From: Azolla caroliniana
Taxonomy: Eukaryota; Plantae; Polypodiophyta
DNA: 64,000 bases
Direction: 5' to 3'
Assembly (NCBI GenBank): GCA_043228905.1
Contig: JBHGNT010000003.1
Span: 10,292,001 to 10,356,000 of the forward strand
In this document: in pieces, positions 8,113 to 64,000 of the stretch
Numbering within the stretch: position 1 is the first letter of the stretch
How the letters are laid out: each line of letters begins with the position of its first letter
The notes under the pieces: model-generated
Told to the model about the DNA's origin: nothing
What the model saw: only the letters and a program-made list of their open reading frames with translations
Databases searched by the model: none
Position numbers and translations under genes: made by a program

Positions 8113-9540
8113 ATGGGTGATTCAGAGAACCAGTTTTCTGTACCAGATAGGGCTGCTGCCCCAACATATTATGGCTCTGATGGACAGCAGCATTGTCCAT
8201 ATTGTTGGAGCAACAGCCTTATTGACAATACCACAAGGGGAGGACAGTGCCCATGGCACAGTGAAACCAGTCAATCAGCACCGAGTTCAAGCGGATTGCG
8301 TTATCGTCGGAGGCATAGATTCGCATCTGGATCTGATTTCCCCAGGCAAGTATTCTATTTGTCTGTCTTTGTATACACATGAATTTATGTAAGGCAGATA
8401 AGGTATGTATGTATGTATGCATAGAAGGTACCCTTGATCATATGTGTAGGCATTCACATGGTATGGATTCATTCATGACTATTTTGTTCTACTTACATAC
8501 TTTCTTTATATGCATTCATGTCTCTTTTACATAGATGGCTTTCATATATCATTCCCTTTGTTACTGACAGGCTAGATGGAATAATGAATGATGAAGCACA
8601 AGTGTTAGAATCATCCAGTATATTCTCTCGAAACGAGAATCGTGACCGTGCTAGATTCCGTGCACCACATTTATTTCATCCTCGATTTCGCACAGGAAGT
8701 AATGGTAGATATGTTACTGATGGAAGCTCAATTTATCTTTTGTCAATGGAAGATAGTAATGAATTTCGAGGAAGGCCATGGAGGTCTCGCACATTGGCAA
8801 GGGAAGAAAGTGAACCAAGTTGGCAACAATTTATGCAAGATATGGTGCAAAACTTCTTGGGACAAGGGGAAAGAATAGATTCTTCCATTGCAAGTCCAGA
8901 CTATGTATCAGATCCAGGAGACTATTTAGATGATTCTAGAGGTTTTCAACGCTTATTATCAGAATTGGCGGAGAATGATAACACCAACCATGGACCACCT
9001 CCAGCAGCAAAATCGGTTATTGAAGCATTGCCATGGGTCAGCATTAAGCCAATGCATATTAAGGATGATTCAGCAACTTGTCCTGTCTGTAAAGAATTAA
9101 TGGAATTGGATGAGTATGCAAAGGAGCTACCTTGTCAACATCTATACCATGAACCTTGCATTGTACCATGGTTGAAAATAAGAAACACTTGTCCAGTTTG
9201 TCGCTACGAGCTTCCAACAGATGATGCGGATTATGAGGCAAGGAATCAACAAAATGCTAATACAACATACACGAACACTGAAGCCGACAGCATTGAGACA
9301 GGGTCTTCTGATAGTGATACAAGTATGATAATAGAGCTTCGTCCAAACCTTATTGTGAGAGAGATTGAGGATGACGATTACTTTGAAGATATTGATGGTT
9401 ACACTAGTGAGACAAGTGGTAGAGGGTGGTTATGGTTTGCAGCAAGGTTTATGGGGCTTTTCCTTGTTTTGACTCTGGGCAGTCGCCTCATTGGTGGCAC
9501 TCGACGTGTGCAAACTAGACGGAATCTATATGACCATTGA
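8113..9540 (+). CDS. RING-H2 E3 ubiquitin ligase (CIP8/Praja-like) with C-terminal membrane anchor, ~400 aa, two coding exons
   Basis: Exons 8113-8345 and 8571-9540 join in frame (FPR|LDG) across a GC-AG intron at 8346-8570. Motifs: PPPAAKSVIEALP; RING CPVCKE...LPCQHLYHEPCIVPWLKIRNTCPVCRYELPTDD; hydrophobic GWLWFAARFMGLFLVLTLG tail. A probable 5'-UTR intron spans 7162 (GTAAGT) to 8108 (TAG). Confidence 0.9.
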
Positions 9541-11057: not shown

Positions 11058-14000
11058 CTATCTCCTTCGTTTTGCTTCTTTCTTCAGCTCCACATGATAA
11101 AGATCCAAATTCGTGCGAATCCATAGACGTCGGAAGATAAGCTCATCCTTTGCCACCTCATCTTAGAATGCAAGTGTGAACCCACCCATCACCCCGATAT
11201 TTGTCAGTTTTTTAATCAACAGTTCCCTAAGATAATTATATGAAAGAAGGGTAAAACGCCAAAATGCCCCTAACTTGTTGGGTACTAATCACAATACGCT
11301 GAAGTTAATATAAGAAATCACCAAAAATACCCGTGCAGCAAATGTTGTAATACATGGTAAAGAAGGGTATTCTGGTCATTTCCAAAAACTTAGGGGGTAT
11401 TCTAGTGAATATCCAAACTCTTAGGGGCATTTGGTGTTTCAAGGAATTGGCATCAATATTGAGCACTAATATGTCTTACTCAGATTTTTCCAACTGACAT
11501 TCGATATTCCAAGACAACGCCTTGTGAGAAATGCCGCATCCTCCCAGGCATATGGAAGATGTTTGATCCAGTATCTCCATATCCAGCATGTTTGCCAATA
11601 TATCAACTGTCATAAACATCTCTTAATTATGAACTTTGAATGCCCAACATATATAAAAGACATGGTTCCACAACTTTCCAGTAAGTAAAATAGACCAAAC
11701 AAACAAAAACATCACTAGTTTTTGTAGCAATGGACAAATACCATGATGGCATGCTCACTGAACCCTGGATAATGGCTTCAAACATAAAATTCTGTGGACA
11801 CCTCGAACTATATTTTAGTAATTTCAAAATTACTAATCCTTGAAAAATATGTCACTAACTTATAAAAGATAAAATAATGTGGATTTAAAATAAGTTGTAA
11901 ATGCAAGGTGGGTTTTTTGGATGCCTTTATTGTTGAGAATGATTAGAATTATAGCCCAACGGCTAGTTATCCCAACGCCCAGATCTTGGCCTTTAAGAGG
12001 AACCTTCTCCTCATGTATAAAGTGATCTCTGTGTTTCCTCTCTCCTGTTGTGACATATATGTATATTCTTGAGAATAAAGATGTTTTTCTCATTTTTCAA
12101 TATGGTATCAGAGCCTAGATCCGCCCTTATGCAAAACCCTAGATCTTCCCCTCTGCCAAACCCTAGATCCGCCCCTCTGCTGGTGTAGCAGTGAACGGAA
12201 CAGCACTGTCCTAGCATCCAAGAGACGAAAGGGAGGCTTCTCCTTAGGATGACAGTGCTATGTGAATGAGAGGTGACTTCAGCAAAGAAGTCATAAGAGG
12301 AGAGATGAGATAGTCTATGTTAAGAAGATGGATGAGGTGTCGTCAAAATTGAATGAGGATCAGGTGAAAACATTGGTGAAATACATGAAGCAGGCTGAGA
12401 TTGTAGCGTCTGGAGGTGTGACGGGAACACAACCACCACCTCGCCTTCCAGATTATTTGTGAGCATGGATGTGCATTTCCGAGAGTGGGAGCCATATTAT
12501 AAACAAAAGGTAACTTCACCCTTTGATGACTTAATTGAGACTGAAAATATGAGGGAAGGAGATAATGGTGAGAGGTTGCTAAAAACAGGATACACCAGCT
12601 GAGAAACAAGTGAGCATAGGAGATGAGGAAGAAGAAGGAAAAGAAGACGAGGAACCTGTATGTGTTGGGGCTCAACCTGAGGGGGAGCTAAATGTGTATA
12701 CCTAGAGTGAGAGGCAAAAGGAAATATGAACACGTCTGCAGTGCCACTTGTGCCATCAAGTCCCATGTCCCAACTTGCCTCGACTTCTGAAATACCTATA
12801 GAACTCCCAAACCCAGAAATCACAGGTGATATGATTTCCTCTCCTTCTCCTATAGTGGTTAGGAGGACCTCTCGCAGTAATGTAGGAGTCCCTCCTGATC
12901 GTTATGGTTTTCCTCATGATATTGCTCAGTTTATCTCTTATTCCAACATATCAGCTACACATAGAGCATTCATTGCATCATTAGACTCCGTCACTTTACC
13001 CAAGTGTTGGCAGGTTGCTAAAGAAGATCCAAAGTGGAAAGCAGCTACGCAAGAAAAACTCAGAGCTCTTGAGAAGAACAAAACTTGGGAGATTGTATCA
13101 CTACCACCAGGAAAGCAGTCGGTTGGGTGCAAATGGGTATGGGTATTCACAATAAAATAGACCCCAGAGGGTAAAATCAATCGTTACAAGGCTCAATTAG
13201 TGGCTAAGGGATATAGTCAAACATATGGCATTGATTACAATGAGACTTTTGCACCCGTAGCAAAGATGAGCACTATTAGAACGCTTATTTCCTTGGCAAT
13301 GAATAAGGATTGGAAATTACATAAATGAGATGTAAAAAATGCATTCCTTCATGGAGAGTTGATGGAGGAAGTGTACATGAATATCCCCCCAGGTTTTGGT
13401 ACAATTCAAACAATAGGCAAGGTGTGCAAACTAAGGAAGTTGCTTTATGGACTGAATCAATCTTCTCGAGCTTGGTTCGACAGGTTAAGAAGGGCTATGG
13501 TGGGTATGGGATACCAGCAAATCAATGTGGACCATACTATGTTTTTCCGACAACAAAAGGAGCATACTACATTACTTGTTGTGTATGTGGATGATATAAT
13601 CATCACGGGTGACAATGAAGGTGCAACTAGGTAAAGAGTTTGAGGTGAAGGATCTAGGGTTGCTACGATACTTTCTTGGAATTGAGGTAGCTCGTGGGGC
13701 AGACGGAGTTGTTCTATCTCAGCAAAAATATGTATTAGATCTTCTCACAGAAACTGGAATGTTGGGTTGTAGGCCTATAGCTTCTCCAATTGACCCAAAG
13801 ATTAAGATAACTGAACTTGCATGAGAAAAAGTTGATTGTGAAAGTTATCAAAGATTGGTAGGTCGGCTGATTTATTTGACTCACACTCGTCCAAATATTT
13901 CATTTGCAGTAAGTGTGGTAAGTCGCTACATGCATGATCCGAGGAAAGATCATATGGATGCAGTGTAGCAGATTCTGAGATATCTCATAGGTGCCCCAAG

Positions 14001-14694
14001 GAAGGGATTGATCTTTAGAAAACATTGTCACATTGAGGGCTATTATGATTCTGATTGGGCTAGTTATGTTGATGATAGGAAATCCATATCAGGTTACTAC
14101 ATGTATGTTGGGGGCAATCTAGTCTCTTGGAAGAAGCAAAATATAGAGCTATTGCACATTATGTACTATAAAAACCCCTTATGGGGCACATAAGGAATAT
14201 AACCTTTTTTCCCCTCATTTTGGTGTAATTCCTCTCTCCTTCTCTCTCACACGTAACCCCCTTGGGAGGGGGGTGGAGCCATTCTAGGCTTCACCCCCCA
14301 CCCCAACAACACTTTTGGCACGCCCGAACGGACGACCTTCCCTTGAGAAGAAGTCACGTCTCCCTCCCTTGCTCACCCTCTCCAACAATAATCTATCTCT
14401 CTCTCTCTCGTTGCATCTCCGTGTTATGTGTGTCTATGGGATGGAAACCCTAGTCCCTCGAAAGAAGAAGAAGAAAGAAGTAGCAGAAGGGAAGTTGTAC
14501 TCAACCCCAAGTACGCTTACGAGAAAGAAGACGAGCTCGTCACGCAACAAACACCCGATTTCTCTGCTACGTCTGCTCACACTCAAGACTCTCTACTCAT
14601 TAGGGTTAGGGTTAGGGTTTCCCTTTTCGCCTACGTCTCCTCTCCCCTCTCAAGCTTCTCTCTGTCTCTGTTTGTTTTGCTTGCTCACACTCAA

Positions 14695-14752
<58 letters not shown>

Positions 14753-17700
14753 ATCTTCTTCTCTGTCGCTCAGATCTAAGGAGCTCCCGCCCTCGCTTGC
14801 CTTTGATTCCTCCCGTTTTCGCATCTATATTTACATCTTCGCACTCAGTAAGTAAGGTTTCTAGCTATGGCGTCCGAAACTGAAAAGCTGAGATCAACCA
14901 GCTCCTTAGCCTCATCATTAACACCTTCTACAGCAACAAGGAGATCTTGCGAGAGCTCATCAATAACTCCTCAGATGCTTTAGACAAGATTCGCTTAGAA
15001 CATCTCACAGACAAGTCAAAGCTCGATTCTCAGCCTGAACTTTTCATTTACATTGTTCCCGACAAAGCCACAAATACTCTTATCATCGTTGACAGTGCCA
15101 TTGGAATGACTAAAGCAGATCTTGTAAACAATTTGGGTACTATTGCGCGTTCTAGAACCAAGGAGTTCATGGAGGCCCTTGCAGCAGGTGCTGACATGAG
15201 CATGATCGGTCAGTTCGGCGTGGGTTTCTACTTTGCATACTTGGTGGCCAAGAAAGTTGTTACCACGAAACATAATGATGATGAGCAATACATCTGGGAA
15301 TCCCAGGCCGGTGGCTCCTTTACTGTTACTAGAGATGATGGAGAGCCTCTTGGAAGAGGTACCAAGATCACTCTCTACCTGAAGGAAGATCAGCAAGAAT
15401 ACCTTGAAGTTGTTAGAAATATTGAGAATCGATTAGATAGGTATATAGAGTTACAACCACAGAGATGGATATATGAAAACAAAACTTCTTCTATTACATA
15501 TGAGAGTAACTCACAATGGTAGTTCACCAGTGAGCCCACACCTTAGAGCTTAGATGGGAAGTGGACCAGTTCACTACAAAATTAGTGGGGATTGATGATC
15601 AATACACCACTGTGTAAGAGAGTGGATTATATTCATATTCTCTGTTTGGTCTGAGTGTAACATTAAATGTGCATGTCAATTGATAGTAGTGGAGATATTC
15701 CTTTTTTGTCAACTTGTCATTAATATGACCCAACTCCCTAGATACAAGATAGAGCTAGATAGTACTTATCTTGAAGTCAATAGCACATACTTCAAGACTA
15801 AGTACATTGTAACTTGCACACAAAATATTCTAGTTGACTTGATTAGCCAATCCTATTACCTATTTTGCTCTTTCCTAAATCCATTGTGTCCTACACATCT
15901 ATGGTTTCCTAGATTAACACCTTATCGACCCATATGGTCGAGTTGCACACTAGCCGCTCCTCATTTGGGGTGCTATCACAAAATGTGCACTCTAAGAGCA
16001 CATATGGGGATAGATTTACAACCTGGGGCTGATCATTGATTATATCTAACAACATTCACAATTTATCAGCTATCCTATTTCTCTGTGGGTTGAGAAGCCG
16101 ACGACAAAGGAGGTTTCTAATGATGAGGAAGAAGAGGAGAAAGAAACCAAGGAAGAAGAAGAGGGTAAAGTTGAAGCGATGTCATTTGCAAGGCGAAGCT
16201 TGTTGCAAGGTATGAAGGAGGAATGGCCAAAAATAAGAAACTTCAAAAGTTTTGAAGGATTTGTACGTGAAGTCCGACCTACAAATCGAGAACACAACCT
16301 TGTCATTGAGTCATATTCATTGGGGGAATTGAGGAGCACATGAAGAAGATTGAATCAAAGAATTCATTGGAAAACTATGCATACAACATGAGGAATACCA
16401 TCAAGGATGATAAGATTGCCAATAAATTGGATGCCGCCGCCGCAATCACTGCCGCTACCAGAATACCAGTTGAAGAAGACTGAGAGGAGAACAAAGAAAG
16501 AAAAGAAAGCAAGAGAGAAAGAGAGAAAGAGAAAGGGGCAGAGAGGAATATTACAATAACTCAAGGGCACACACTCGAATTTCAAAAGTTCGAGGGTAGA
16601 AGACAAATTTTAAAAGCACAAGGGCATAGTACAGAATTTCAAAAACTTGAGGGCACGCAAACAAATTTCGAAAAGAGAAGGGCAGGACACAAGATTTCTA
16701 AAACCGAAGGATACTTAATAGGACATAGAATTTTGGAAATATAAGGTTACAAAAACTTATCACTATTCACACTAAGAAGGAAAAACATATATATATATAT
16801 ATACACACACCCACAATCATTGATAAACCTAAACGAAGGTACCATAGTGGATAAGACGATTGGTGTGCGATCCAATCGTGCAATTATGCTGACCGAACGA
16901 GAAGGTTCGTGTCAAGCCAACTCCGATCGAAGTTATCAATCGTCGAGCAGTAATCCGGTCAAGGAATTTCCGACCGTGAGAGAAGACCGATAGAGGTCCG
17001 ATCAACAAGAGTTTTTTCGACATGGGCTTATGGGTCCGGCTTATAGGCGTGCCAGGTGTTATCTGTATAGGTGTACGGGATGGATAAAAGATGTAATGTA
17101 TGGTGTGTAAAGCCTAAGGTGTGTAATAGGTAATATGCATAGGAGTGTGTGAGGATGAGTATGTGTGAGCACATACACAATTATGTGTATGTGACAAGAA
17201 TGTAACGGTCGTCTTTTTGTAACGATCATTATTTACCGTTACATTATGTACTATAAAAACCCTTTATGGGGCACATAAGGAATATAGCTTTTTCCCCTCA
17301 TTTTTGTGTCATCCTAGAATGGCTTCACCCATAAAGACAAATACAAAATGACAAATCCAAATCACAAAAATGTGAGACGGGAAAAATGTCTATCCATTAT
17401 GTGCCCCATAAAGGGTTTTTATAATACATAATGTAACGGTAAATAATGAGCGTTACAAAAAGACGACCGTTACATTCTTGTCACATGCACATAATTGTGC
17501 ATGTGCTCACACATACTCATCCTTACACACTCGCATACATATTATATATTACACACCTTAGACTTTACACACCATACACATTACACCTTATCCATCACAT
17601 ACACCTATACGGATAACACCTGACACGCCTGTGGAACAATGCATCGCACATCGAACCCACAAGCCCATGCCGAAAAAAAACTCTTGTTGACCGAAACTCC

Positions 17701-20700
17701 ATCGGTCTTCTCTCACGATCAGAAATTCCTCGACCAGACTACTGCTCGACGATCTATAACTTCGATCAGAGCTAGCTTGACACTTCTCGTTCGATCAACA
17801 TAATCGCACGATTGGATCGCACACAAATCGTCTTATCCATTGCGGTACCGTTATTTAGGTTTATCAATAATTGTGGGTGTATGTGGGTGTGTATATATAG
17901 ATATAGATATGTTTTTTATCTTCCTTAGTATGTGTAGTGATGAGTTGTGTTTCCAAAATTTTATGTCCTACCTCTCAGGTTTTTTTTCTAAATTTATATT
18001 AAGTACTCTCCAGTTTTAGAAATTTCGTGTCTTGCCCTTCTATTTCTGAAATTTGTTTGTGTGGCCTCGAGTTTCTGAAATTTTCTTCTCTGCTCCTTTC
18101 TCTTTTCTCTTTCTTCGATTTTTGAAATTCCCTTGTTCGCCCTTGACTTTTCAAAATTATCCTCTCCGTCCTCAAATTTCTGAAATTTTGCGATCTACCC
18201 TCGAGTTTTCAAATGCCCCTCTCTTCTTGCATCAATTCTTCACTTTGTATTCCAGCCTTTCACTTCTGGCGGATGGCAGCGGCTATTGTTTAGACCATTC
18301 GCATCTCCGCGATGGATATGAGGCCATGTATTTCACTATTGCTTAGGCCTCTTCTAGTTGGGATTGACCTCAAAGATTGACCGGTGATGAGGAAGGGAGG
18401 TGGGAGCTTTAGGCACCAAAGCCATGGGTGCCATTGGCTTTAGGTTTCATTTTTAGTAGCACATACCTACACACATAGGCGTACACGCAACATAGACATA
18501 GGGAGGCAATAGACAAGGAGAGAGGGAGACTTCCTCTCACGGGAGGGTTGGTCGTTCGTGCATGCCAAGAAGCCTAGAATGGCTCCACCCCCCTCCCAAG
18601 GGGAATTACGCGTGAGGAAACGAATGAGAGGGAAAAATGTTATGTTCATTACATACCCTATAAAGGGTTTATATAGAACATAGTCTAACGGCTAATAATA
18701 TGACCGTTACAAAAAGAAGACCATTACATGCTTGTCACATGCACATAATTGTGCATGTGTTTACACAAATATTTAACCTCATTCACACTCTCCTATATTA
18801 CACATACAAAACAACCCCTTTAACGTGTTTTACCCTTATACCGTCCCGTACAACTCCTAGGGTAACACATGGCACACCTGTGGGACAATGCATCACACAA
18901 TGAACCCACTCGCCATGGCAACTATTAACAACCGAAACTCCATCGATCGTCTCAATGGTCAGAAATCCATTGACTTGATCATAGCTCTACGATCGATAAT
19001 TTCGATCGGAGCATTGCTTGACTCAAACCTTCTCGTTCGGTTAACATGTCGCTCAATTGGATCACACTAATTGGCTCATCCATTGCGGCATGGGTCTTTC
19101 ATGATTCTATTACATGTATGTGTATTTTTCGGTTTCGCCATGTGAATTGAGCTTTGTATTTTGTACACTTGGTCTCTAGAATTTTTACCCTCAAGTTTTT
19201 TGAAATTTTATTTTCGGCCCTTTATTTTTCAAAATTTCATCTTTAAAATTTTCTCTTCATACCCCTCTTCTCTTCCTTAGTTTCCTTCTATTCTCCTCTT
19301 TTTTCTTTTCTTCTTGTGCGTTCTTCTCTTCTTCTGCTTCTTCCTCTGCATTTCTTCCTGTTTTCCTTCTCTCTGTGTGTATGTTCTTTCTTTTTCTTTT
19401 TCTGTGGTCACCTATGGCCATTTCCATACGTGACGTCACCATCTGTCGACCGTCAGCTCGGCCGCTACTATTTGGCGGGTTCGTCCATGTCTTTTCGGAC
19501 ACCTGTGAAACTTTGGCCATCTCTTGATGGCCAGCTTTGTTTGGGGCCGTCTTTGTACGGCTTTCGGACTGCTACTGTTTAACGGGTTCAGCCGTGTCTT
19601 TTCGGACACCTGTGAAACTTCGGCCATCTCTCAATGGCCGGCTTTGTTTGGGGCCGTCTTTGTACAACTTCCAGACCATCTTTTGGGCTCTGCTATCATC
19701 GATCTTCGTTCGTCCGCTCCGTCGTATGTCAAACCGCAGTCTTTGGGCTGACGCTTTTGTGTCAACCGATTCTCGGCCCAGCCATCTGGCCGCGTCTGTC
19801 CGGCCGCCGCCGTTTGTCGATTGTCGAACCGGCTTTGTCCTACGGCCGTCACTAACTCGGCCGTCTTTGCCCGGTTGGCCTTCACTCAGTTGTCATCGTC
19901 CATTTGTCGGCCGGCCATATCTGTTCGCGGGCCGGTTGTCGAACATCGTTCGTCGCCGTTCATCGGTTGCCGACTGTCCGTTCGGGCTCTATCGAACCGT
20001 CCGTTGCCGTTTGTCGGCTTTGTCGGACGTCTACCGTCTGTCTGGCTACTTCCACCAGCTGGCCATGTCTCGGTTGGCTGTCCGACAACGGCCCTGTTCG
20101 TTGGCTGTTTGGCCAGCCGCCGATTGGCACTATTCGGCGCCATCTACAATCATGAATCAGGAACGAAATAGCTTCGATTTAGCCCACTTGGGGTTGAGCC
20201 ACCACCATAACTTGGATTCAAATAACCACCATATCCAATATTGGCAACATCAGGGCGAGGAGATGGTGGTGGTGAATTGGGCCTCACTCCACTCTCTGAA
20301 CCATATGTAGAGTTTCCATAAGAGCTCATTGTAGAGGGAGATGCACTTCCATAAGGCACATTACATCTAGAGCCATGTGATCCCTAGTTCACATTGCTAC
20401 TCATTCCACCATAGCTCTAATTTAGATTCGGACTCAGGCTCAGAGTTGCCATAGGAGGGGGGGAGAGCTTGGGTGGAAGCGATGGAGTGGGGAGTGATGA
20501 TCGCTGCCATAGCTGTGAGGAGTAAACAAACACGCAGAGAGGAAGGTGAGATGAGGGGATGATGAATGTAGAGAGGGGCTGATGATGGTAAAGGCATCAC
20601 AAGCATATGCAAGGTCATCATCATGATCCTCCCCCTCCTGTGGATTCTCCATCATCATGTGGGTGTGTCTACGAATCTGTAAAATGCCCACAAGTCACTA

Positions 20701-21524
20701 CCACCACCAAGGAAAAAGGGGACGAGGAAGGCAAGAGAGAGAGGGAGAAGAATATTGTGTGCTTCCAAATCATTTTTCTCTGTACGTGTTTCTAAGAGAG
20801 CTCAACTGATAGCCTTTTCACCGGGATGCAACTGTGGACCAATTCTTCCAAAATCCTTTTCTCCCAAAATCTTATGCATCAATTTTTCTTCTCAGCCATG
20901 GAAACTTCTACTTCCTCTCTTAGTTTAGCTACTTCAGCTGCAAGAAGACCGTTAGTATTCTGCAGGTTCTCCACCATTGAGCTGACGGATTGAAGACGAT
21001 CTTCAGCCATGGCTCTAGATTTCCTTTCAGCTTCTATCCTGTCACTCTTCTCTGATCGGATGGTCTCCATGTCTTCTTCAAGTCTTTGATCTCATCAAAA
21101 ACCTCCTATTGTATCATGTAGAGAGTCTTTCACAAAAAACCTCTAATCAAAATGGCTCACCATATAGTGATTGTATGCACAAAAACACACTCTCTAACAC
21201 ACACAAGTAGAGGCATAGAGAGGGAGGGTGAAAGATTAGTGATGGTGAGGGAGAGTGAAGGAGGGAGAGAGTGACCTTATATTTCCAAAAACTCCTTATT
21301 GGGCACATAATGGACATAGCTTTTTCCCCTCATTTCTGTGTCATTTCGTATTTTTACTTTCCTTCTCTCTCTCTATCGTAATCCCCTTGGGAGGGGGGCT
21401 AAAGCCACCCCACCTCAACAACACTTTTGGCACGCCCGGTGGGACGACCCTCCCTTGAGAAGAAGTCATTCATACTCTCTCTCTCTCTCTCTCTCTCTCC
21501 ACACAAATCGTTCTTACATCTCAG

Positions 21525-21557
<33 letters not shown>

Positions 21558-24500
21558 AGGAAAACGAAGCTTTCCATTACCACAGCTCAGTCACTGGTCG
21601 CAGTTCCAGACCCAGAAGTAGAGTCGCACTCCCTGCCTCAAGTCGAAGTTACCAAGACAGAGTAGAGAGAGAGAGAGAGAGCTCCACCGAGCTCTGCCAT
21701 GGCTAAAGAAGGAGAAACGGATGAAGGTGAAGAAGAAACGGAAGAAAGGAAGGAGAAGAACGCAGGAAGAAGACAGACAGAGAAAGAAAACAGAAAGGAA
21801 GAAAAAGACAAAGAAGTAAAAGAAAAGCTTGAGGGCTGGATAAATTTTACAATAATGCGAGGGCACGCAACCGAATTTCAAGAACCGGAGGGCAGCGGAT
21901 GAGAATTTCACAAGCTCAAGGGTATCCATTAAAATTTTGAAAATTTTGAGGGTAAAAACGAAAATTTTTAAAACCAAAGGGTACAAATCATGAATTTTCG
22001 AAAACACAACTCACATGATGAAAGAAAGAATACACAAAAGCACAACACGATTTCACGACCCATGCCACATTGAACTAGCCGATTGGTGTATGATCTAATC
22101 GCGACTTGTGGTGAGAGTCAAGCAAAGCTATGATCATAGAGCAGTGATCCGGTCGAGAGATTTCCAACTGTTGAGACAACCGATGGAGTTCCGGTCGAGA
22201 AGAGTTGCCATGGCGAGTGGGTTCACCGTGCAATGCACTGTCCCACATGCGTGCCATGTGTTACTCGTAAGAATATACGAGGAGGCATAAGGGTATGTGT
22301 AATGATGTGGTTGATATGTATGTATAATATGAATGAGTGTGTGAGGATGAGTATGTGTGAGGTCAACGGCAGAATATAGAGCTATTGTTGTAGGAGTTGC
22401 GGAGATGTGACTAAGAACTCTCCTAGTAGAACTAAAGATGAATCAAGAAAATCAGATGAAGTTGTGGTGTGACAATAAGTCAGCAATCAGCATTGCCAAC
22501 AATCCAATGCAAGCATCATAGGACCAAGCACATCGAAATCGACAGATTCTTTATCAAGGAGAAGCTTGATAGTGGAATATTAAAATTGAGTCATGTTTCT
22601 ATTGAAGATGAAGTAGCATATTGTCTTACGAAGGGACTTGGGCCAGTAAGTTTTTCTAGATTGTGTGACAAGATGGGCTTAGTGGATATCTTTCGCCCAT
22701 CTTGAGGGGGAGTGTTGAGAATGATTAAAATTATAGCCAAACAGCTAGCCCAACAGCCAGATCTTGGCCTTTAAGAGGAACCTTCTCCTCATGTAAAAAG
22801 TGATCTCTATGTTTCCTCTCTCCTGTTGTGGCATATATGTATATTCTTGAGAATAAAAGTGATCTCTGTGTTTTCTGAATGAAAAATAACAACAATTTAA
22901 TACAATTTAACTTATTTTCTTCACTAATGGTCTTGAGATAGAATATGGCTTTCGCCACGATCTACAAACAAGACGATGATTGATACTAACTGAGTTCGTT
23001 AACAGAGGGATTGAGAGAGTTCTATCATTCCCATTCGCTATCTCAACATCATTCGATTATTGGTGAGAACTCAGAAGATGGCCCAGCAGGTGGAAAATTT
23101 TCTGTATTGCATGCACGTATATGAATTAAGAGTAGTCCCTCTGTTATTGGATGGAATTTTTAAAATGAAGTGTAGTTCTTTAGCTCATATGATGCAAACA
23201 CTCTATAATCCCAACCCTAGCCTCATAAATCCTCTCATCACCTCACTCTCAAGACACAAAACTAGTTCTCTATCAAGTAAGCTTTAGAATAATGATAAGA
23301 AGAGCTTCCACTACTACAAGATAGTTGGATCTTGTTAGGTCGTCAATCCTAAGAATATACGGCATTTCACTTCTACATGGATTACTTCTATTATTCTTTT
23401 CCATGAACCTACATTGTATGGTAAATATGGGAAATCTGGATGAGTAATTCATAATGAGCCCAAAATTACGAGGTGGCTACTTCATGAACTTGGTGCACAT
23501 AGCAAAAAAGTTGTACCAAATGTCATGAATTGAAAATAAAGAATTTCAACCATAACAATTAATTTGTTGACCCTTTCAAAAAGTAGCAAATAAGAAAATG
23601 TGAGAACCTTAGAGAAAATCCTGGTGAGAAGTGTGGTTCAAACCAGTAAACTAGTACATACCTCAGCTGTCTTCTGAATCAATGAGGATAACGTCTAGGC
23701 ATGCTATAGCACCACATGCTAGGCTGATGCACACATTTCACTATTCGCTTGGATATCAGAAGCTATGCCCTCTATGCATCTACGTAAAATGATTCAACCA
23801 TCACGGTGGCTATTGGATACAAAGAATGTAAAATAAAGATTCCCTCTGTCAATCATTTTTCCAATCAAAGAGGAAAAGAGTGATTGGGTAGATATATCAT
23901 TGAGTGGATTGTAAGAGCTTGAATCAGTTCCAATTTCCGGCCAATATTATTTTCTTGTTCTTAATCATCCACACTAGATTGATTGCTACCAATAAACCGA
24001 GTGACATTCGAATATCAAAAACGAGGGATTCTCTTGCATAAATGCAATCTCCCACTTGATTTGGCAACAAATCTTTAGGTTCAGTCCAGAAAATTACTAT
24101 TAAACTCTACAAAACCTACATGCAAGAACTCCCATTTGATTTGAAAGGAATGTGAGAGAGAGAATGATAAATAACTATTAGAGATCAAAATTGTCCAACG
24201 AGACAAACGGGTTAATTCATGTTATCAATACTAAAACAAAAAAAATGCTTTAGGTTTCCTAAACCTCCATGATCATGATCTTAATGCATCTAGTGAAATA
24301 ATTTTTGAGATGGTTTACAAGCATTTAGTTCTAGGTGTCATGTGGATAGAGCATGGCATGCAATGATCTCCATGATCTGGTGCCCATGTACCTTATATCA
24401 TAGTACACATGATTCACATTGTCGTCAGCATTCCTTTGCTCCCTCTATGGTGACTCCTTGGCATGTTTCCAAATGGAGATGTGGAGCTATGAAAATTAGT

Positions 24501-34610: not shown

Positions 34611-36121
34611 CCGAAAACTCCGGAATTGAACAGGCTGGCTGAACGGATGAATTGGACGATAATGGAGAGAGTCCGAAGTATGCTGGCAAATGCAAAGTTA
34701 CCCAAGATGTTTTGGGCTGAGGTGCTGACAACGTATGTGATAAACAGATCACCCTCAGCACCCTTAGAAGGAGACTCACCACAGAAAGTATGGACCGGTA
34801 AAGACGTATCCTACCGGCATCTAAAGGTGTTCCGATGTCTTGCTTACGTGCATGTGGTGAAGGACAAGAGAGCAAAGCTGGATCCGAAGTCCTGACCATG
34901 CATATTCCTTGGATACGACGACGATGAGTTTGGTTACCGGGTGTGGGATTTGGTCGAAAAGAAGGTGTTTCAGAGTCGGGATATAGACTTCATGGAAGAC
35001 AGGACCTTTGCCGACTGGGAGTCGGAGAAGAAGGTGATGAACTCCAGATCATCCAATGAAAACTGGCTTGAGGACACAAGGACTTACCCGGTTGAAAACC
35101 GGATGTTAGCCGGTAACCGGATGACACTTGGCGAACCGGCCGGATACAGACAAGAAACCGAACCGACTAAAAAAGAAGAAGAAGAAGAAGACACCGGAAC
35201 TGACAAGATCTCGAATCGGATTCGGATTCGGAACAAACGGAGAAACCGGTGGTCAGAAACCAGGAATGGAGATATCCTCTCCGAGAGAGAAGAGCCCCCC
35301 GGAGATTTCCGGATGCAGAGCATGTGTTGCTAACTGATGAGGGGGATCCGGAAAGCTTCAAAGAAGCAAAGAGAGACAACCACAGCCGCAAGTGGTTGAG
35401 TGCCATGCAGGACGAGATGGATTCCCTCCATGAAAACCATATGTATGAATTGACGAAGTTGCCGAAAGGGAAGAGAGCACTCCGGAACAAGTGGGTGTAC
35501 AAGCTAAAACCGGGAGACGCCAGAAATCCACCAAGGTACAAAGCCCGGATCGTGGTGAAGGGCTTCTACCAGAAGAAAGGAGTGGAATTCAATGAGATCT
35601 TTGCACCAGTAGTAAAAATGGCATCCATCCGGACGGTATTGAGCATAGTGGCAAGCATGGACCTGGAGGTAGAGCAACTGGACGTCAAGACGGCATTCCT
35701 ACATGGCGACCTCGAAGAAGAGATCTACATGCATCAACCGGAAGGATTTGAGAAGAAAGGGAATGAGCATCTGGTGTGCCAGCTGCAGAAGAGCTTATAC
35801 GAATTGAAGCAAGCCCCTCGACAATGGTACCGAAAGTTCGACTCATTCATGACCGACCAAGGGTACTAGAAGACGCAGGCCGACCATTGTGTGTTTGTGA
35901 AGAAATTTGATAGAGGAGATTTCCTGATACTTCTTCTATATGTGAATGATATGTTGATCGTCGGACGAGACTAAGGCAAGATTCAGATGCTGAAGAAGGC
36001 TCTTAACCGGACCTTCTCAATGAAAGACTTGGGTCCAACAAGACAAATATTGCCATGCACATCATCCGGAACCGGTCGAAGAAGCTGTTGTGGTTGTCAT
36101 AGGAGAAGTACGTTGTCGAGC
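34611..36121 (+). mobile_element. Ty1/copia (Tnt1/Tork-like) integrase-RT fragment
   Basis: PKTPELNRLAERMN, FWAEVL, AMQDEMDSLHEN, RYKARIVVKG, QLDVKTAFLHGDLEEEIYM. Stops present; both ends cut by Gypsy LTRs. Confidence 0.9.
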
Positions 36122-39071: not shown

Positions 39072-42000
39072 TGAGAGGAATAGTGCTTGGCTGCAACCAA
39101 GTCTTAAACACTCAATGGAAGAAACAAACCAGAAATGAAGATTGATGCACTTACACAAAATGAGCACCGGATGTTAACGTGGAAACCCTAATCGGGAAAA
39201 ACCCACGGAAGCCCACAGATTCCAACAATCACTATAAGAGGAAGGGTACAATACGAGACTTAGAGGCAACGATCTTGAGCTCTATGTCTTCGCCAATCGA
39301 CAGTTACAACAGAGAATACTTTCTGTTTTTCTCTCGTTCTCTCTCCTTGTCTCGCTGTACAACGATAACAACATATGAACATTGTTTCCCTAGTTATATC
39401 TATACTTATATAAATCTAGGGCTATTTACAAATATGACCTCAACGGTCATGTCTGAACATATTTACTAGTATGTTCCTATTTGTTGGTTCATACCGTATC
39501 CGGCTGGACTCCTTTCGGATTCATCCGATCCGGTATCCAGGTACCTTTCGGACCCATTCGGTCCGGTTCCTTCCTTTTTCTTGTCTAGATCCCATCCGAA
39601 GGGACCTATTTCCCAAAAAACTCCCCTTTCACTCCAGTATGGGATGTCTCATCAGTCCGATCTGTCTTCGGCACACATCCAACTTGTCGGTTGACAACAC
39701 CTTGGTCAACATGTCCGACCTGTTCTCCTCCGTATGGATCTTCGTCAACAAAAATTCTTTATCTTCTACCTTCTCCTAGAACCAATGATATCTCCTTTGG
39801 ATGTGCTTGGTCTGGGAGTGGTACACAATGTTCTTCGCAAGGTGAATGGCACTTTGAATGTTGCAATAGAGCCGGAATTCCTCTTGTCGGATCCCTAACT
39901 CCTCGATGAAATCCGTTATCCAGATTATCTCTTTTCTAGCTTCTACAGTTGCCATGTACTTTGCTTCCATTGTCGATAGTGCAACGGACTTCTGTAGCCT
40001 CGACTACCACGATACAACTCCCCTTGCATAAGTCATGACATATTCGGATGTAGACTAGCTGGTATCCGCATCAACCAACATACCTGAGTTTGTGAATCCT
40101 TCAAATTGGGGTTTACTTGAGCCGAATCGGAGGCACATACTCGAGGTGCCTTTCAAGTACCGGAGTATCCACTTGATTGTGGTCCAATGTTCTCTTCCCG
40201 GATTTCTCATGAATCGGCTGAACACTCGGATTGCATATCTGATATCCGATCGTGTGCACACCATTGTGTACATCAAACTTCCGACGGTAGAGGCATAGGG
40301 AATCTTCCTCATTCCCGATTTCTTTACCTTTGTCTTCGGGCTCAATTTTCCGGACAGCTTGTAATTTTCCGGAAGTGTTGACCCGATCAGCTTAGCATCC
40401 GACATGTTGAATCATTGGAGCACCTTCGTCACGTACTTCTCCTGTGATAGCCACAATAGCTTCTTCGTCGAGTCCCAAACTATGTGCATCCCCAATATCT
40501 GTTTCACCGAACCCAAATCTTTCATTGAGAATGACCGGTTGAAGGTCTTTTTTAGCACTCCGATTTTGGTTTGGTCCGGTCCGACTATTAACATGTCGTC
40601 CACGTACAACAAGAGTATTAGAAAATCTCCTCCATCGAACTTCTTCACAAACACGCAATGGTCGGCTTGCATCTTGTGGTATCCCTGGTCGATCATGAAG
40701 GAGTAGAACTTCCGGTACCATTCCTGGGGAACTTGCTTCAGTCGGTATAAAAGATTCAACTGGCGCACCAAGTGCTCCTATCCTTTCTTGACGAATCCTT
40801 CCGGTTGCTGCATGTAGATCTCCTCCGCAAGGTCTCCATGAAGGAACGTCGTTTTCACATCTAGTTGTTCGACCTCGAGGTCCATGCTTGCCACTATGCT
40901 CAACAGAGTTTCGATGGATGTCATCTTTACTACCGGGGTAAAGATCTCGTCGAAATCCACTCCTTTCTTCTACAGGAAACCCTTTAACAGAATGCGGGCT
41001 TTGTACCTTGGTGGATTTCCGGTGTCTCCCGGTTGCAGCTTGTACAACCACTTGTTCTGAAGCACCCTCTTTGCTTTCGGCAGCTCCGTTTGGTCATATG
41101 TGTGGTTCTCATGTAGGGAATCCATCTCATCCTGCATGACACTTAACCACTTCCTGCCGTGGGTGTCTCTCTTTGCTTCTTCGAAGCTTTCCGGCTCCCC
41201 CTCGGTGGTCAGCAGCACATGCTCTGCATCTGGAAATCTCCGATGGGCTCTTCTCTTCCTGTGAGGAAATCTCCTTCCTTCATTCTCGACCACCGATTCC
41301 TCCGTTTGTTCTACATCCGAATCCGATTCGGGGTCTTGTCTGGTTCTAGTGTCCGATTCTTCTTCGGTCGGTTCTGGTTCTTTGTCCGAATCCGGTTGGT
41401 TTATCCTAGTCTTCGGTTGACATCCGAATTTTGACCAGATGTGTCCTTCCATCTTCCAACCGATCTCTGTCGGTCGATCTGGAGTTTGCTATCTTCTTCT
41501 CTGAGTCCTAGTCTGCAATAGTCTTGGCTTCCACGAAGACTATGTCTGGACTCTGGAAGAATTTCTTGTCGACCAAGTCCCACACTCGGTAGCCGAACTC
41601 ATCATCGCCGTATCCAGGGAATATGCATGGCCCTGACTTTGGATCCAACTTTTCTCTCTTGGATCCAACATGCACGTAAGCGAGACAACTAAACACCTTT
41701 AGATGCTGGTAAGACATGACTTTATTGGTCCATAGTCTCTGTGGTGTGTCTCCATCTAAGGGTGTTGAGGGTGATCTATTTATCATGTAAGGCACCGCCA
41801 TGAGTGCCTCAGCCCAAAACATCTTGGACAACTTAGCATGTGCCAGCATGCTCCGGACTCTCTCCATCACAGTCGGGTTCATCCTTTCAACCAATCCATT
41901 GAGCTCCGGTGTCTTCGGCACAAGGAATTTGAGCCGGATTCTCTTTGACCATCAGTACTCTTTGACCTTCCTCGGCAAGTTTATGCATCCCTTTCTGGCT

Positions 42001-48374: not shown

Positions 48375-51300
48375 TGAAAAAGATTATGTGCAAAAGAAAT
48401 AGAAAACCGAACACAGAAAATACGCAGGTTTAATGGAGAGCTTGAATATACACAGTACACGGGTGAGACGGAGAGAGAACACACAATCTGTACATACACC
48501 GTGCTTAGTGAGCACCTTTTATACAAGCCTTGACAATAGGGCTGACACAAGTATTGACAGTACTTGACTGCTCATAAATGAGCCTACTACATTAACTCCC
48601 AAAATTATTCCTTACGAGGAATATCTTCCCAACGGCCTCGCAGTTTTCACACCGATACGGCCATGTTATGCGTACCGATTTACGCACCCAGTCTACGCAC
48701 TGGGTTACGCATCGTATTACGCACGAATGTTGAGCTTGTCTCTCAACACTCCCCCTCAAGCTCAATTTGAGGTTCCACCTACTCCGCCAGATCTACGCTC
48801 CGGTTCCTTCTGACTTCACGCCTCGCTCATGCTCCTCGACCCGTTCGATTCTGCGCGCCTCGACCCTTCCGGTCGGCCTGTCTGCTTACACGGCCCTTCT
48901 CAGCTTTTTTTGCATTTGCGGTGTTGGCGACTCTTCTGCTGCCTTCTCTTCCGCTTGGCCCTTGGTTGATTCAATGTATCCGAATCAAACATCTGAACCT
49001 ACTCGACTTCCTCTGATCGGTTTTCGCTCTCGTCCGAGTTGGTTGTCTCCAACTCGTTTTCGGTCTTCTCGCCCTTGATGGCTTCATCTCCCCCATGCTT
49101 GGTTGTCTTCGGCTCTTTCTTTTGACTGCTCCCCTTATGTCCGCTTTTTGACTCTTCCGCGGATCCGCCCTCGACTTCTTCAGCCGATCCGAAATCGAAT
49201 TCGTCATCCAACTCGTCGTCACAGTCTTCTCCGCTCCTTTCCTACTCCCTTCCGTGGTCATCATGGACATCTGTCCCACTCAAGTTCGGCACGTCGAGGT
49301 GACGCAACCCAAGCGTACTCGAGAATTGCCGCAACTTGTCTAGACCAAGAGGCTTGGTGAAGATGTCGGCGTTCTGCCGATCCGTCGGAACATACTGAAG
49401 TTCGACTTTACTGGAGAGGACATGCTCACAGACAAAATGGTAGTGCACCTCAATGTGCTTAGTCCGGGCATGGAAGACGGGGTTCTTAGCTAGCTGGATG
49501 CTGCTGAGGTTGTCGCAGTAGATTGTCATTGGATCGAATACCTCCACCTGCAGATCCTTAAGTAGCCGCTTCAACCATATGGCTTCGCATGTCGTGACAA
49601 CCGCTCCTCTATACTCGACTTCGGTGCTCGACAGCGCAACTGTCGGCTACTCCTTGCTACTCCACTCGATCGCAGCACTCCCAAGAGAGAACGCTAAACC
49701 AGACGTGGATCGGCGATCGGCGGCGTTTCCGGCCCAATCAACATCGGTGTAACCGACCAACTGTGTGGTAGTATCGGTCCGATATAGTAGCCCCCAGTCC
49801 TTAGTGCCATTGACGTACCGGATAAGCGTTGTGCGCACTAAAGGTGCTCCTCGGTCGGTCGCGCCATGAACTGACTAATCACCCTGACCGGGTAGCTGAG
49901 ATCTGGTCGGATGATGGTCAAGTATATAAGGCTTCTGACTATCTGTCGGACCCTCGTCGGGTCGCATACCTTTCCGGAATTAGGGCAAAGCTTGACGGTT
50001 CTATCCAGAGGAGTCGAGACGGACTTACAGTCGGCCATCCCGAATTTGAAGAGCATACTCAACACGTAATGTCGTTGGCTGATCAGTATGCCTTCGGGGG
50101 TGCGGATCACTTCGATCCCAAGGAAGTAATGAAGGTCCCCCAGATCCTTCATGTCGAATGATGCCGCAAGCTAGAGCTTCACGCGGTCAATCTCACCTAG
50201 GTCGGTGCCGGTGATGACCAAGTCATCAACATAAAGTAAAATGCTAACCGGCCCGAGTCGACCTTTCCGGATGAATAGTGAGGAGTCCGATTTTGACGTC
50301 GCAAAGCCCAACCGACGCAATCGTTGCGTGATCTTCGCGTTCCAGGCACACGGGGCTTGCTTTAGTCCGTAAAGGGACTTCTTCAATCGGCACACCGCCA
50401 AAGTGTTCGTTCCGGAGTGAAATCTAGGGGGTTGTACCATGTATAGCTATTCCTCAAGCTCACCTTGCAGGAACGCATTCTTTACATCCATCTGATGTAA
50501 GTGTCACCCCTTTGCCGCAGCTACCGCGAGCAAAACACGGACGATCGTCATCTTCGCGACCGGCACAAACGTCTCATCGTAGTTGATGTTGTGGTTCTAC
50601 GCATAGCCTTTCGCTACTAATCGGGCCTTGTATCGGTTGACTACGCCATCGGTGTTGTACTTGACCTTGTACACCCACTTGCATACGATCGGCTTCACAC
50701 CTTTTAGTGCGTCAACCAGGTCCCAGCTTTCATTCTCCGCTAATGCGCGCATCTCTTCCTCCATTGCGGCGCGCCAATTTGCATCCTTCGCCCCTTCTGC
50801 GTAGCTCTCTGGCTCACGCACTTCCACTGCACGGGTCATGTATGCATAGTGATACGCCATGTACTCATTGTATCCGAACCGCACAACAGGGTTCTTCTGG
50901 CGGGTAGATCGGCGCAATTGCTCATTAGCCGATGTTGAGGCTATTTTAGTCGACGCGGACTTCACTCTCGAAGACCCATCATCACTTCCCTCGGAGTCAG
51001 ACTCGGGTCGATTCAACTCGTTCTTATCCGAGCCATAATCTGACACCTTCTTCTTCCCTTTTTCCTTGCGCGTAAGCCGTCTCCTCGGCTTCCTGCGCGG
51101 GGAATGCACGACCGAGTCTCCACTACTCGCCAGCTCTTCATCGGACTGGTCAAACTGACTCAGTCGCCCATCCGGTCCGCTTAACCGAAATGAAATCGGA
51201 CTCTCTTCGCGGGTCCCGATTTCAGGCTCATCCGGAGGCATCTCAACCTTGCTGACCTCATCGTCAGAACTCGGATTAGAGGTGAGGTCTGGAGGCAAGT

Positions 51301-53966
51301 ACCAAGACGCGGACTCGTCAAACACAATGTTGCAGCTCACGCGCGCTTGTTTGGTGCGAGGGTTATAACACTTATAACCCTTCTGCTCGTCCAAATAGCC
51401 AACCAAGATACACTTCTCAGCTTTCACGTCCAACTTCCTCCGTTTCTCCTTCGGCACATGCACATACACAATGCTACCGAAAACTCTCAAGTGTCGCAGA
51501 TTCAGCTTCCTTCTAAAATAAAGCTCATGCGCCGACACTTTTTCTCTGATCCAATTCTGAATGTACACCGTGGTTCGTACCGCCTCGGCCCAATAGAACT
51601 TGGGCAAGCTCTTCTCCTCCAACATTGCTCGTGCCGCTTCTACAATTGACCAATTCTTCCTCTCGGCCATGCCATTTTGCTCCGGTGTGTATCTACAACT
51701 GAATTCGTGCCGAATTCCCATCTGTTGTAGATAGCCGTTGCATTGACCAGAAAAGTACTCTTTTCCGCCATCAGACCGCAAGCGCTTGATCTTTCGTCCT
51801 GTTTCCGTTTCCACGAACCCTTTGAGGTCCCGGAAACAGTCGAAAACTTCACTCTTCTTCTCGATGAGGTAGATCCATGTGTGCCACGTATTGTCGTCGA
51901 TGAAGGAGACAAAATATCGACTCCCGCCAAGACTAACGTTCTATGCCGGCCCCCATACATCGGAATGTATCAAGTCGAGCTTGTTCCGGCTCCGATTACG
52001 CTCGTTAGGGAAAGGAAGTCGGTGTTGCTTCCCTAGCTAGTAGGCTTCACAAATTCATGCCTTTTGGCCACTAAAATTGGGCAATCTGAACACCACCTGT
52101 TTCGACTGCAGGTCCTGAAGCCGTTGATAGTTGAATGTGGCCTATTCTCTTGTGCCATAAGTCAATATCCGACTCGACTTTTTGTCCTTTCGCGAACATT
52201 GCGGTGCCACTGTCACTAGAGTTGAGGATAAACATCCTCCCGTCTCTGTGCCCTTGCGCAATAACTCGGCCTTCTTCCTCGATGAAGCACCCAAGATGCG
52301 TGAACCGGACTTGCATCCCCTAGTCGACGATCTACCCTAGTTGGGATGTGTAACACGTTCATAAGTTTCCCTTTCTGCCCGACATGGCTCAAGGGAACTT
52401 CACCGACATTCACGATCGGATGCGGAGTGTCGTCTCCGGTTGCGACTACTCCCGGTTGAATCGGTTTTTCCGGGTACGAGAACCACTCCTTCTGGCACGT
52501 CATGTGGTTTGACGCGCCGGAGTCGACGTACCACACCTCGTCCGACTTCGGAGTGTTCTTCTTCATCGAGTTTGCTTCGTGTCTCGTCACGAAGACTGAC
52601 CCTTTTCCGGCTTTTTCGGATCCTTCGGCGTAGTGCGATCACTGCCGATTTCCTTTGTCGGTCTATCCGGAACCTGATTCGGATCCGGTCTTATCCAAAT
52701 CGGTGCTCTTCTTCCAGCACTCGCTCTCCTTGTGGCCTTTTTTGCCACAGTACCAGCATTCCACGACAGATTTCCCTTGCTGGTTCTCGTCGACTCGACT
52801 CCCTCTATTCTGGAGGGTCAAGAATTGTTGTCGGCATCACTTCGGTGCCTTCTTCCTCGATCCCGTCGACCGCCTCCATTGCGCACCGACTCGCCTCGTC
52901 TGCCACGACCACGGGGCCTATCTCCCTCCGTGTACAACATCTTGTTGTCGGCATGCGTGCTTGTCGTCACACCCGTGTGGTTCTCCTCTATAAGGAGCAT
53001 CGATTGTAAGTCAAAAAATGACGGCATATTCTCCCGTGTACACACAGCAGTTCGGAACACTCCGAACTTCGACACCAGTCCCCCAAGACAGATTTGCACC
53101 ATCTCGCCTTCGTCAACGTTCACATCGATAGTGCCTAAGGAGTCGCATATCTCTTTGATCTGCGAGGTGTAATCAGCCACCGATAAGTCACGTTGTCGTA
53201 AATTACTCAGCTCCTATCGGAGTTGAAGCTTCCTGGTTGTGGTGCTTGCGGCGAAGATCTTCAGATTTTCCCAAGCATCCTTTGGCATTTTCGCATCCCG
53301 AATATAGCTCGAGCTATTCGCCCACACAAGACGCGAAGCAGTACAATATTCTGTGTGTCGATTCGAGTGTTGTGTCATTTGCTCCGTCGACATAGCTCCA
53401 ATAACCGTGCCCGAGCAGGTACTGGTGCATCTTGTAGGACCAAGACGCGTAGTTGTTTCTGTCGAGCTTCTCGGTAGGAAGCGAGCTAGCCATGCCTCTA
53501 TCCATTTTGTTTTTTCCTATTCTTCTTGGTTAGTTCTCTTTTCAAGTTATGTCGGCTGCAGAGGTTCTCAACCCTCGCGCTCTAATACCATTAAAAAGAT
53601 TATATGCGGAAGCAATACGCAGGTTTAATGGAGAGCTTGAATATACACAGTACGTGGGAGAGACAGAGAGAGAACACAGAAACTCAATTCAAAATAATAC
53701 TTAATCTGTACATACACCGTGCTCAGTGAGCACCTTTTATACAAGCCCTGACAATAGGGTTGACACAAGTATTGACAGTACTTGACTGCTCATAAATAAG
53801 CCTACTACACTAACTCCCAAAATTATTCCTTACGAGGAATATCTTCCCAACGGCCTCGCAGTTTTCACACCGATACGGCCATGTTATGCGTACCGATTTA
53901 CGCACCCAGTCTACACACTGGGTTACGCATCGTATTACGCACGAATGTTGAGCTTGTCTCTCAACA
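48375..53966 (-). mobile_element. Full-length Ty1/copia element with TSD (pol inactivated by stops/frameshifts)
   Basis: TSD GATTT at 48370-48374 and 53967-53971. LTRs 53591-53966 and 48375-48748. PBS TGGTATTAGAGC 53590-53579; PPT 48760-48749. Order gag-PR (WYVDSGASNHM)-INT-RT (YVDDL)-RH. Confidence 0.95.
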
Positions 53967-54444: not shown

Positions 54445-54547
54445 TGTGAAATTTAGCGTGCGGAAGCGTTCGACAAACCGGCTCAACCGGATAGCAACAG
54501 AAAATGAGAAAAGATTTAATGGAGAACTTAACACAAAGAATACGCGT

Positions 54548-54625
<78 letters not shown>

Positions 54626-59150: not shown

Positions 59151-59198
<48 letters not shown>

Positions 59199-61360: not shown

Positions 61361-61364
61361 AAAT

Positions 61365-63918: not shown

Positions 63919-64000
63919 TGTCGTGAAGATTTTTGGCAATAGTGTGAAAATCCCATAAAACGTACAAAATCGAGTATTAATCATGTAATACAATAATTGT

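Follow-up and report, generated by a model that had tools for sequence, protein, structure and literature searches.

In a stretch of 64,000 nucleotides of the fern Azolla caroliniana (contig JBHGNT010000003.1, positions 10,292,001 to 10,356,000 of the forward strand; hereafter the window, within which all positions are counted), we analysed a cluster of non-coding long terminal repeat (LTR) retroelement units lying inside a Copia element. Comparison of the window with itself confined the repeated modules to 14156-22361, and alignments resolved four units at 14155-22361, U1 (+), U2 (-), U3 (-) and U4 (+), confirming the number and orientations proposed in a first-pass annotation made from the sequence without database searches. 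From one LTR to the next, the modules are a primer-binding site (PBS), a leader rich in CT, a slot of variable sequence, the 3' block, a stem that resembles a T-arm and has a hairpin, a tRNA-like tail and 2 nt. The LTR, of the form TGTT...AACA and about 340 bp long, starts with TGTTA (at 17057 and 22259 on the plus strand, at 17618 and 18867 on the minus strand).

The array and its Copia setting

The LTR pieces of the four units are 83-97% identical over the aligned stretches and the 3' blocks 74-84%. In comparisons with shuffled sequences (30 each), 13 of 15 LTR pairs and all six block pairs exceeded the best shuffle, the two other LTR pairs being those without overlapping LTR positions. That every unit is framed by the same modules, as first annotated, holds for the LTR pieces and 3' blocks, present in all four, but not for the LTR end and the PBS, retained in U1 and U4 only; in U2 the PBS is degenerate and the LTR in front of it is without its last ~20 nt, and U3 has neither 5' LTR nor PBS. 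Likewise, the repeated terminal block described there as 700-900 bp long does exist, but is made up of about 500 nt of 3' untranslated sequence followed by the LTR from TGTTA onwards. The length from PBS to 3' LTR in the window units is 829-2739 nt.

U1 (+) begins with the 3' part of its 5' LTR (14156-14311, starting near position 185 of the LTR and reaching its AACA end; 94.4% identical to the U1 3' LTR over 72 nt), and its PBS (14316-14333) was located by motif match 4 nt past the LTR end. Downstream of its cargo, alignment delimited the 3' untranslated block (16541-17036), formed by 29-bp subrepeats and then a conserved stretch, which is followed by the tail (a sense tRNA-like 3' end, complementary to the PBS and hereafter also called anti-PBS; 17037-17054) and by a 3' LTR cut at about position 256 (17057-17312). 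At 17312, U1 meets U2 tail to tail. On the minus strand, U2 comprises a 3' LTR whose end is missing (17314-17618, 92% identical to the U1 3' LTR), the T-arm-like stem with small hairpin and anti-PBS (17621-17660), a low-copy interior (18230-18525) and the degenerate PBS (18550-18567). The next LTR (18572-18867, -), with its last ~20 nt deleted, serves both U3 (as 3' LTR) and U2 (as 5' LTR) and is the most repeated LTR variant of the array; it adjoins the stem, hairpin and anti-PBS of U3 (18870-18910, -). U3 and U4 are joined head to head at about 21280. U4 (+) consists of the 3' part of its 5' LTR (21287-21423), the PBS (21428-21445), the interior (21470-21830), the stem, hairpin and anti-PBS (22217-22256) and only the first 103 nt of its 3' LTR (22259-22361). 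The PBS-like 18-mers at 14316 and 21428 are two matches against a chance mean of 0.01; we take them to be of the tRNA-Arg type, an assignment that our attempts with ARAGORN failed to confirm. ARAGORN found no tRNA within the window, and an Rfam search of 11500-23500 gave just two weak miRNA-family matches, far under the cut-off.

The host Copia (+) is split by the array within its RNase H region; its 5' LTR (11931-12099) is 94.5% identical to its 3' LTR over 145 nt and is followed by a PBS at 12103, presumably of the Met type. According to the alignment, a 19-nt piece of this RNase H region is present on both sides of the array (14136-14154 and 22369-22387, both +; 18 of 19 nt identical), and beyond the right copy the Copia runs to its own polypurine tract (PPT) and 3' LTR (22713). 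Since both outer LTRs of the array are cut, no integrase-type 5-bp target-site duplication (TSD) is found at its borders, where the 19-nt duplication stands instead.

The cargo of U1 and the other interiors

We were able to identify in U1 pieces of two host genes, HSP90 and HSP70, as first annotated. The N-terminal part of HSP90 (14868-15409, +) is frameshifted and lacks three introns (sites 14976/7, 15118/9 and 15393/4); the sequence continues, in a fern-type form, with the charged linker (16053-16176, +), and a C-terminal piece of HSP70 follows (16328-16440, +). HSP90 was identified by Pfam and is 89% identical to the best full-length plant matches, and its N-terminal and linker residues resemble those of the Adiantum and Ceratopteris proteins (15 proteins compared); the HSP70 piece has a PDB match with an E-value of 8e-11. 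In contigs of a run that we guess to be RNA (X12), HSP90 continues past 16176 and HSP70 extends on both sides of 16370-16434. The two HSP90 pieces are separated by a high-copy insert of 641 bp (15411-16051, no strand assigned; contig depth 58,000-87,000; joint 15409-16053), which replaces 29 nt of HSP90 and has 8-bp inverted ends. These ends, of the form TG...CA, suggest a nested solo LTR rather than cargo, so that 0.64 kb of the ~2.2 kb of HSP90/HSP70 cargo first annotated would be such an insert, the gene pieces themselves being present. It is also the most repeated sequence of the stretch covered by contigs (14760-21460). Neither this insert nor 16177-16327 gave a useful match in the window or in the metagenome loci described below. 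Ahead of the HSP90 leader, U1 has three TAGGGT(T) units (14593-14622).

The HSP90 cargo was very likely copied from a spliced mRNA, since the introns of genomic paralogue contigs are missing from it. At the first site, paralogue DNA contigs of runs X1 and X2 leave the alignment at 14977 into GTGAGT... and re-enter it from ...TTCAG; at the second, the longer contigs of the same runs stop aligning at 15118 (the intron letters are not displayed); at the third, the alignment breaks off at 15393 for contigs of three runs, and a loose end in X2 starts with GTATGT. Contigs that differ from the window by 2-4 letters cross these sites uninterrupted.

As first annotated, the interiors of U1-U4 are unrelated, the sequence that they share being limited to the CT-rich leader or to microsatellite stretches, and no gag/pol or extra open reading frame (ORF) homology was found in them by Pfam or homology comparison. 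The interiors of U2 and U4 gave no useful match in the window or the metagenome loci. The U3 interior, annotated as ~1.8 kb of cargo, contains a GC-rich degenerate repeat module of about 0.7 kb (19430-20140, -), which is probably element-derived, as such modules are common in relatives of the array (most of them have stretches alike in composition). U3 also holds a broken ORF piece rich in Ser, Gly, Tyr and Pro (20153-20452, -; unnamed homologue P0121, 72%) and a coiled-coil ORF piece (20882-21091, -; unnamed homologues P0122 and P0123), of which the same 230 nt were matched in a 2586-nt contig of the presumed RNA run and in a 3107-nt DNA contig of run X2. For these pieces no homologues were found among longer proteins; HMMER returned three unnamed proteins and Pfam generic coiled-coil matches.

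Copy abundance and relatives

Assembled contigs of four public runs were aligned to 14760-21460 at 80% likeness, and their depth was summed, a measure that is not a copy number. In X1, near-identical contigs, assigned to the locus itself, reach a depth of 37-54, and the summed depth is 87-106 over HSP90, 143-527 over the U2 and U3 interiors, 780-1,560 over the subrepeat block and 4,100-44,000 in the bins of the conserved 3' block and LTR; the profiles of X2 and X5 have the same shape. The depth of the U3 interior is 3-10 times the single-copy depth of U1 in X1, which again is not a copy count. The ends of the family are highly repeated and the interiors low-copy. As the depth of the ends lies far above that of the locus itself, a single-copy 3' block or a simple local duplication is excluded.

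A scan of metagenome contigs for the tail motif followed by TG yielded at least 120 loci, and the figures below refer to the matches listed. The sequence continues like an LTR start in 106 of 120, the other 14 being set aside as chance matches, and 28 share at least 80 bp with the array. For the comparison of interiors, one locus was dropped for a false PBS (L063) and another added by hand with a best match below 80 bp (L029). Nine interiors are complete (758-2171 nt); they have in common a leader of ~80 nt and the 3' end, and their middles are mostly unshared.

Host genes were sought in 128 of the 389 ORFs of at least 60 aa in 23 longer loci, picked by composition and by eye. In L058, an HSP70 sequence from its start codon lies between PBS and 3' block (E-value 1.9e-13), and in L004 a RUP2-like piece lies in antisense between leader and block (E-value 2.6e-26). 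A weak zinc-finger match in the second unit of L058 (E-value 0.003) was not counted, and L013 gave none. The sequence upstream of the L058 HSP70 has a weak likeness to 14563-14669 of U1 (score 52, reached in 0 of 500 shuffles; the next of 3350 real windows scored 51).

Some relatives with the tail are coding: L008 has an integrase and an extra ORF of 1170 aa, and L051 and L036 have gag. The extra ORF (1381-4890 in L008) is conserved, follows the integrase and has no Pfam match, with homologues in at least 35 loci. In L027, a homologue of it ends at an LTR 92% identical to that of the next unit and 79-91% identical to pieces of the window LTRs. Tandems with shared LTRs occur in 7 of the 28 family loci. 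In L058, a single contig, the HSP70 unit adjoins a complete LTR in reverse orientation (minus strand, ~2700), the point of fusion being exactly where PBS and anti-PBS match, possibly by a strand-transfer error specific to the lineage; the contig also has a tail-to-tail join near the LTR end, like that of the window.

Two phage loci (L121 and L122, 124-270) hold a Y-RNA-like element with a T-arm and a CCA end close to the retroelement tail, a likeness that probably reflects generic tRNA mimicry; in these two loci, which have the T-arm motif, ARAGORN found no tRNA matching the PBS.

A family with common ends, variable middles and a tRNA-like tail

We consider it likely that the four units of the array are decayed representatives of a non-coding LTR family that exists in many copies, with common ends and different middles, and whose members would be copied in trans, would pick up mRNA and would have their second strand primed at a tRNA-like tail. 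The core of the first-pass annotation, namely that these are non-autonomous LTR elements in many copies whose variable middle can carry spliced mRNA, is supported by the depth of the ends, the intron loss in HSP90 and the middles of the relatives. The cases that would have spoken for something else (a block present only once, an interior fixed in all copies, the anatomy of a Pack-MULE) were looked at, and none of them was found. The proposal of an ordinary derivative of miniature retrotransposons with terminal repeats (TRIMs), large retrotransposon derivatives (LARDs) or Tat/Ogre elements is not supported, since the units have no PPT and a tRNA-like tail in its place.

In fact, no PPT precedes the LTR in U1-U4, the longest purine run in the 20 upstream nt being 1-3 nt, against 9 nt in the host Copia. 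The sense tRNA-like 3' end is found instead 2 nt before TGTTA in all four units (chance mean 0.22; none of 100 shuffles had four). Over 17 nt, the tail of U2-U4 is 82-88% identical to the reverse complement of the U4 PBS, and in U1 the match is 9 of 9 nt at the end. Upstream of the tail there is the T-arm-like stem with a small inserted hairpin, the latter deleted in U1; each of the five outer stem pairs is conserved in 19-20 of the 20 copies compared, with almost no covariation, in loci that had been selected on the 3' strand. We hypothesized from this arrangement that the tail may be a plus-strand primer site replacing the PPT, a role that we regard as evenly balanced between true and false. 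Non-autonomous elements retain only what copying requires. Tail and hairpin have been retained although the units are non-coding, which supports the idea that the tail takes part in replication instead of a PPT.

The tail could instead act as an RNA structure, in circularisation with the PBS, in packaging or as a guide for RNase H that leaves a non-purine primer, and we give this a smaller but appreciable chance. As the tail is the reverse complement of the PBS, both could pair within one RNA; moreover, the predicted single folds of the tail region are modest (z -0.5 to -2.4) and the inserted hairpin breaks up the T-loop. What speaks for the primer site is the exact distance of 2 nt to the LTR in all units, the LTR-like continuation in 106 of the 120 listed loci (where the spacing is fixed by the search motif) and the lack of any visible substitute for the PPT.

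Several observations weigh against the family proposed above. That each unit is loaded with host cargo, as first annotated, did not hold, such cargo being identified in one of the four units here and one of the nine complete interiors among the relatives; for U2, U3 and U4, no host donor was identified by Pfam or protein homologue searches, and a clear host gene was found in only 3 of the 23 longer loci. One of these three, a DFR/CCR-like sequence in L076, has three exons and keeps two GT-AG introns; it may belong to a neighbouring gene, since the contig is without a PBS. The RUP2-like piece, being antisense, is uninformative on splicing. Within U1, only the first intron site is bridged by a contig of its own type under a 31-letter rule, since on one side of the second and third sites just 28 and 16 letters are aligned, and run X5 holds another, divergent HSP90 DNA copy from which the first intron is absent (record 25, 14889-15321). 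The 5' part of the U1 cargo is at single-copy depth in X1 (depth 50), so the cargo seems not to have spread. Three of the nine complete interiors (L026, L031 and L038) are of one type, three more overlapping partly and the remainder being largely unique. Finally, where contigs assembled from short metagenome reads show tandem joins, these may come from collapse during assembly, and a 5-bp TSD around an intact unit was not observed, none of the listed loci having both outer ends identified. Separately from these points, we noticed that the X5 copy (from organism B) is possibly another retrocopy.

The same data bear on a simpler explanation, in which the units are ordinary non-coding deletion derivatives with fast-diverging low-complexity middles, host genes are captured only now and then, and U1 is a one-off chimera resembling maize Bs1, without any special cargo slot. 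The scarcity of host genes in complete interiors and the single-copy appearance of the U1 cargo fit it, as does the nature of most relatives, whose interiors are GC-rich or AG-rich, of low complexity and without Pfam matches. Nevertheless, independent host pieces occupy one position in U1, L058 and L004, U1 joins at least two donors, and the U3 pieces match contigs of the presumed RNA run and long unique DNA contigs, so that we find this explanation rather doubtful. Capture at the DNA level (by Pack-MULEs, Helitrons or filling-in during repair) or an artefact of assembly, the terminal inverted repeats then being the inverted blocks, would agree with a 1.6-kb imperfect palindrome at 16541-18166, the cut outer LTRs, the introns kept in L076 and the inverted junctions, bridged by none of the contigs among the matches listed, but is very improbable, because LTR/PBS anatomy recurs in the relatives, the inverted blocks lie inside and not at the termini, the three missing introns coincide with splice sites, the palindrome arms are only 76% alike and L058 has similar inverted joins in another data set.

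For a trans-copied family of this type, a course of events can be proposed. For the LTR class, priming of the minus strand by a tRNA at the PBS is established. The RNA of the non-coding units would be packaged and copied in trans by a coding Gypsy relative, and could be packaged together with abundant host mRNAs. A second tRNA might pair with the tail as copied into the minus strand and serve as primer for the plus strand, a step that we think could equally well be right or wrong. The cluster probably formed by recombination between LTRs or by template switching, with additional rearrangement, and it probably entered the Copia without integrase, as both outer LTRs are cut and the duplication is of 19 nt and not 5 bp. 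As for the cargo, the intron loss in U1 and the template-switch model in the literature suggest that reverse transcriptase would switch onto a co-packaged mRNA and then back (PMC5131818).

A broader version of this proposal seems to us improbable as a whole: a fern family that would need only PBS, leader, 3' block and tRNA-mimic tail, would be primed by tRNA on both strands, would swap in mRNA routinely through a free slot and would generate inverted arrays by confusion of PBS and anti-PBS in strand transfer, as the reversed LTR of L058 would illustrate. If true, the family would be a genome-wide generator of shuffled exons and of inverted repeats (a source of small RNAs) and, among natural templates replicated without a PPT, the smallest. 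Apart from this broader version, units of ~1.5 kb would make the role of the tail in replication easy to test. Through the family, chimeric retrocopies could also arise in a fern genome, and inverted arrangements beside HSP90 and HSP70 pieces could give rise to small RNAs against the donor genes.

Comparison with known systems and other features of the window

Typical TRIMs have a PPT before the 3' LTR; the window units are without one and have the tRNA-like tail there. Like TRIMs, they are without coding capacity between direct terminal repeats, with a PBS after the 5' LTR in U1 and U4 (degenerate in U2 and lost in U3). TRIMs carrying exon-only host fragments, some of them multi-gene, have been described as 30 elements of 7 subfamilies (1172-1449 bp), together with tandem arrays that share LTRs and a type in which two copies stand in inverted orientation (Gao et al. 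2016, PMC4717578), so that exon-only multi-gene fragments and tandem and inverted arrays are found in both. Most TRIMs are below 1 kb and the cargo-bearing ones 1.2-1.4 kb (PMC4717578), and the window units are longer, with 829-2739 nt (758-2171 nt in the listed relatives) plus two LTRs of ~340 nt; their 3' block of ~500 nt and their fern host are further differences, and no TSD was visible, the outer LTRs being cut.

Maize Bs1 and other LTR-mediated retrocopies hold partial intron-free mRNA pieces, explained by template switching (Tan et al. 2016, PMC5131818; review PMC13317346). As in Bs1, intron-free pieces of more than one gene, HSP90 and HSP70 in U1, replace the element ORFs between LTR parts. 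Bs1 copies, however, carry one common cargo, whereas the window family has common ends and different middles, and for U1 nothing points to further spread.

The PBS a few bases after the LTR and the coding relatives with an integrase and a long extra 3' ORF recall the non-chromovirus OTA Ty3/Gypsy elements Athila, Tat, Ogre and Retand. Membership there is defined by RT, RH and INT phylogeny (with an aRH domain for Tat) and goes with a PBS complementary to tRNA-Arg; the window units cannot be placed in a clade, because they have no polyprotein. Most LTR elements have a PPT (Neumann et al. 2019, PMC6317226), unlike the window family, and ferns have no occurrence in the main text of that article. 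LARDs combine LTRs of great length with a single long interior that is non-coding and conserved, in contrast to the LTRs of ~330-420 nt and mostly unshared middles of this family.

Pack-MULEs, which are bounded by terminal inverted repeats and a TSD of ~9 bp, resemble the family in having common ends around varied host fragments. The window units differ by their LTR/PBS anatomy, by having no terminal inverted repeats and by the intron loss in U1, Pack-MULEs being reported to retain introns (PMC4717578). The description of the array as a retro-analogue of Pack-MULEs corresponds to what is already on record in soybean TRIMs, Bs1 and the work of Tan et al. (2016): exon-only capture of several genes by small non-coding LTR elements, with tandem and inverted arrays, is known (PMC4717578, PMC5131818, PMC13317346), and gene capture has been reported in gymnosperms (PMC13477047). 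What is new is a non-autonomous cargo carrier without a PPT; a literature search on gene capture, ferns and PPT-less priming, covering titles and the openings of abstracts, found no description of the family or of a tRNA tail replacing the PPT.

Elsewhere in the window, an intact-looking ORF of 284 aa (1410-2264, -) has a weak match to seed-storage and lipid-transfer proteins (E-value 0.008) and looks like a 2S-albumin-type storage protein, and a RING-H2 finger ORF of 353 aa from stop to stop lies at 8479-9540 (+). Two Copia-like pol regions, 77% alike, stand in inverted orientation at 34611-36113 and 40431-41918, and 48419-64000 is occupied by several nested Copia-like elements, with related LTRs that contain (GA)n runs.

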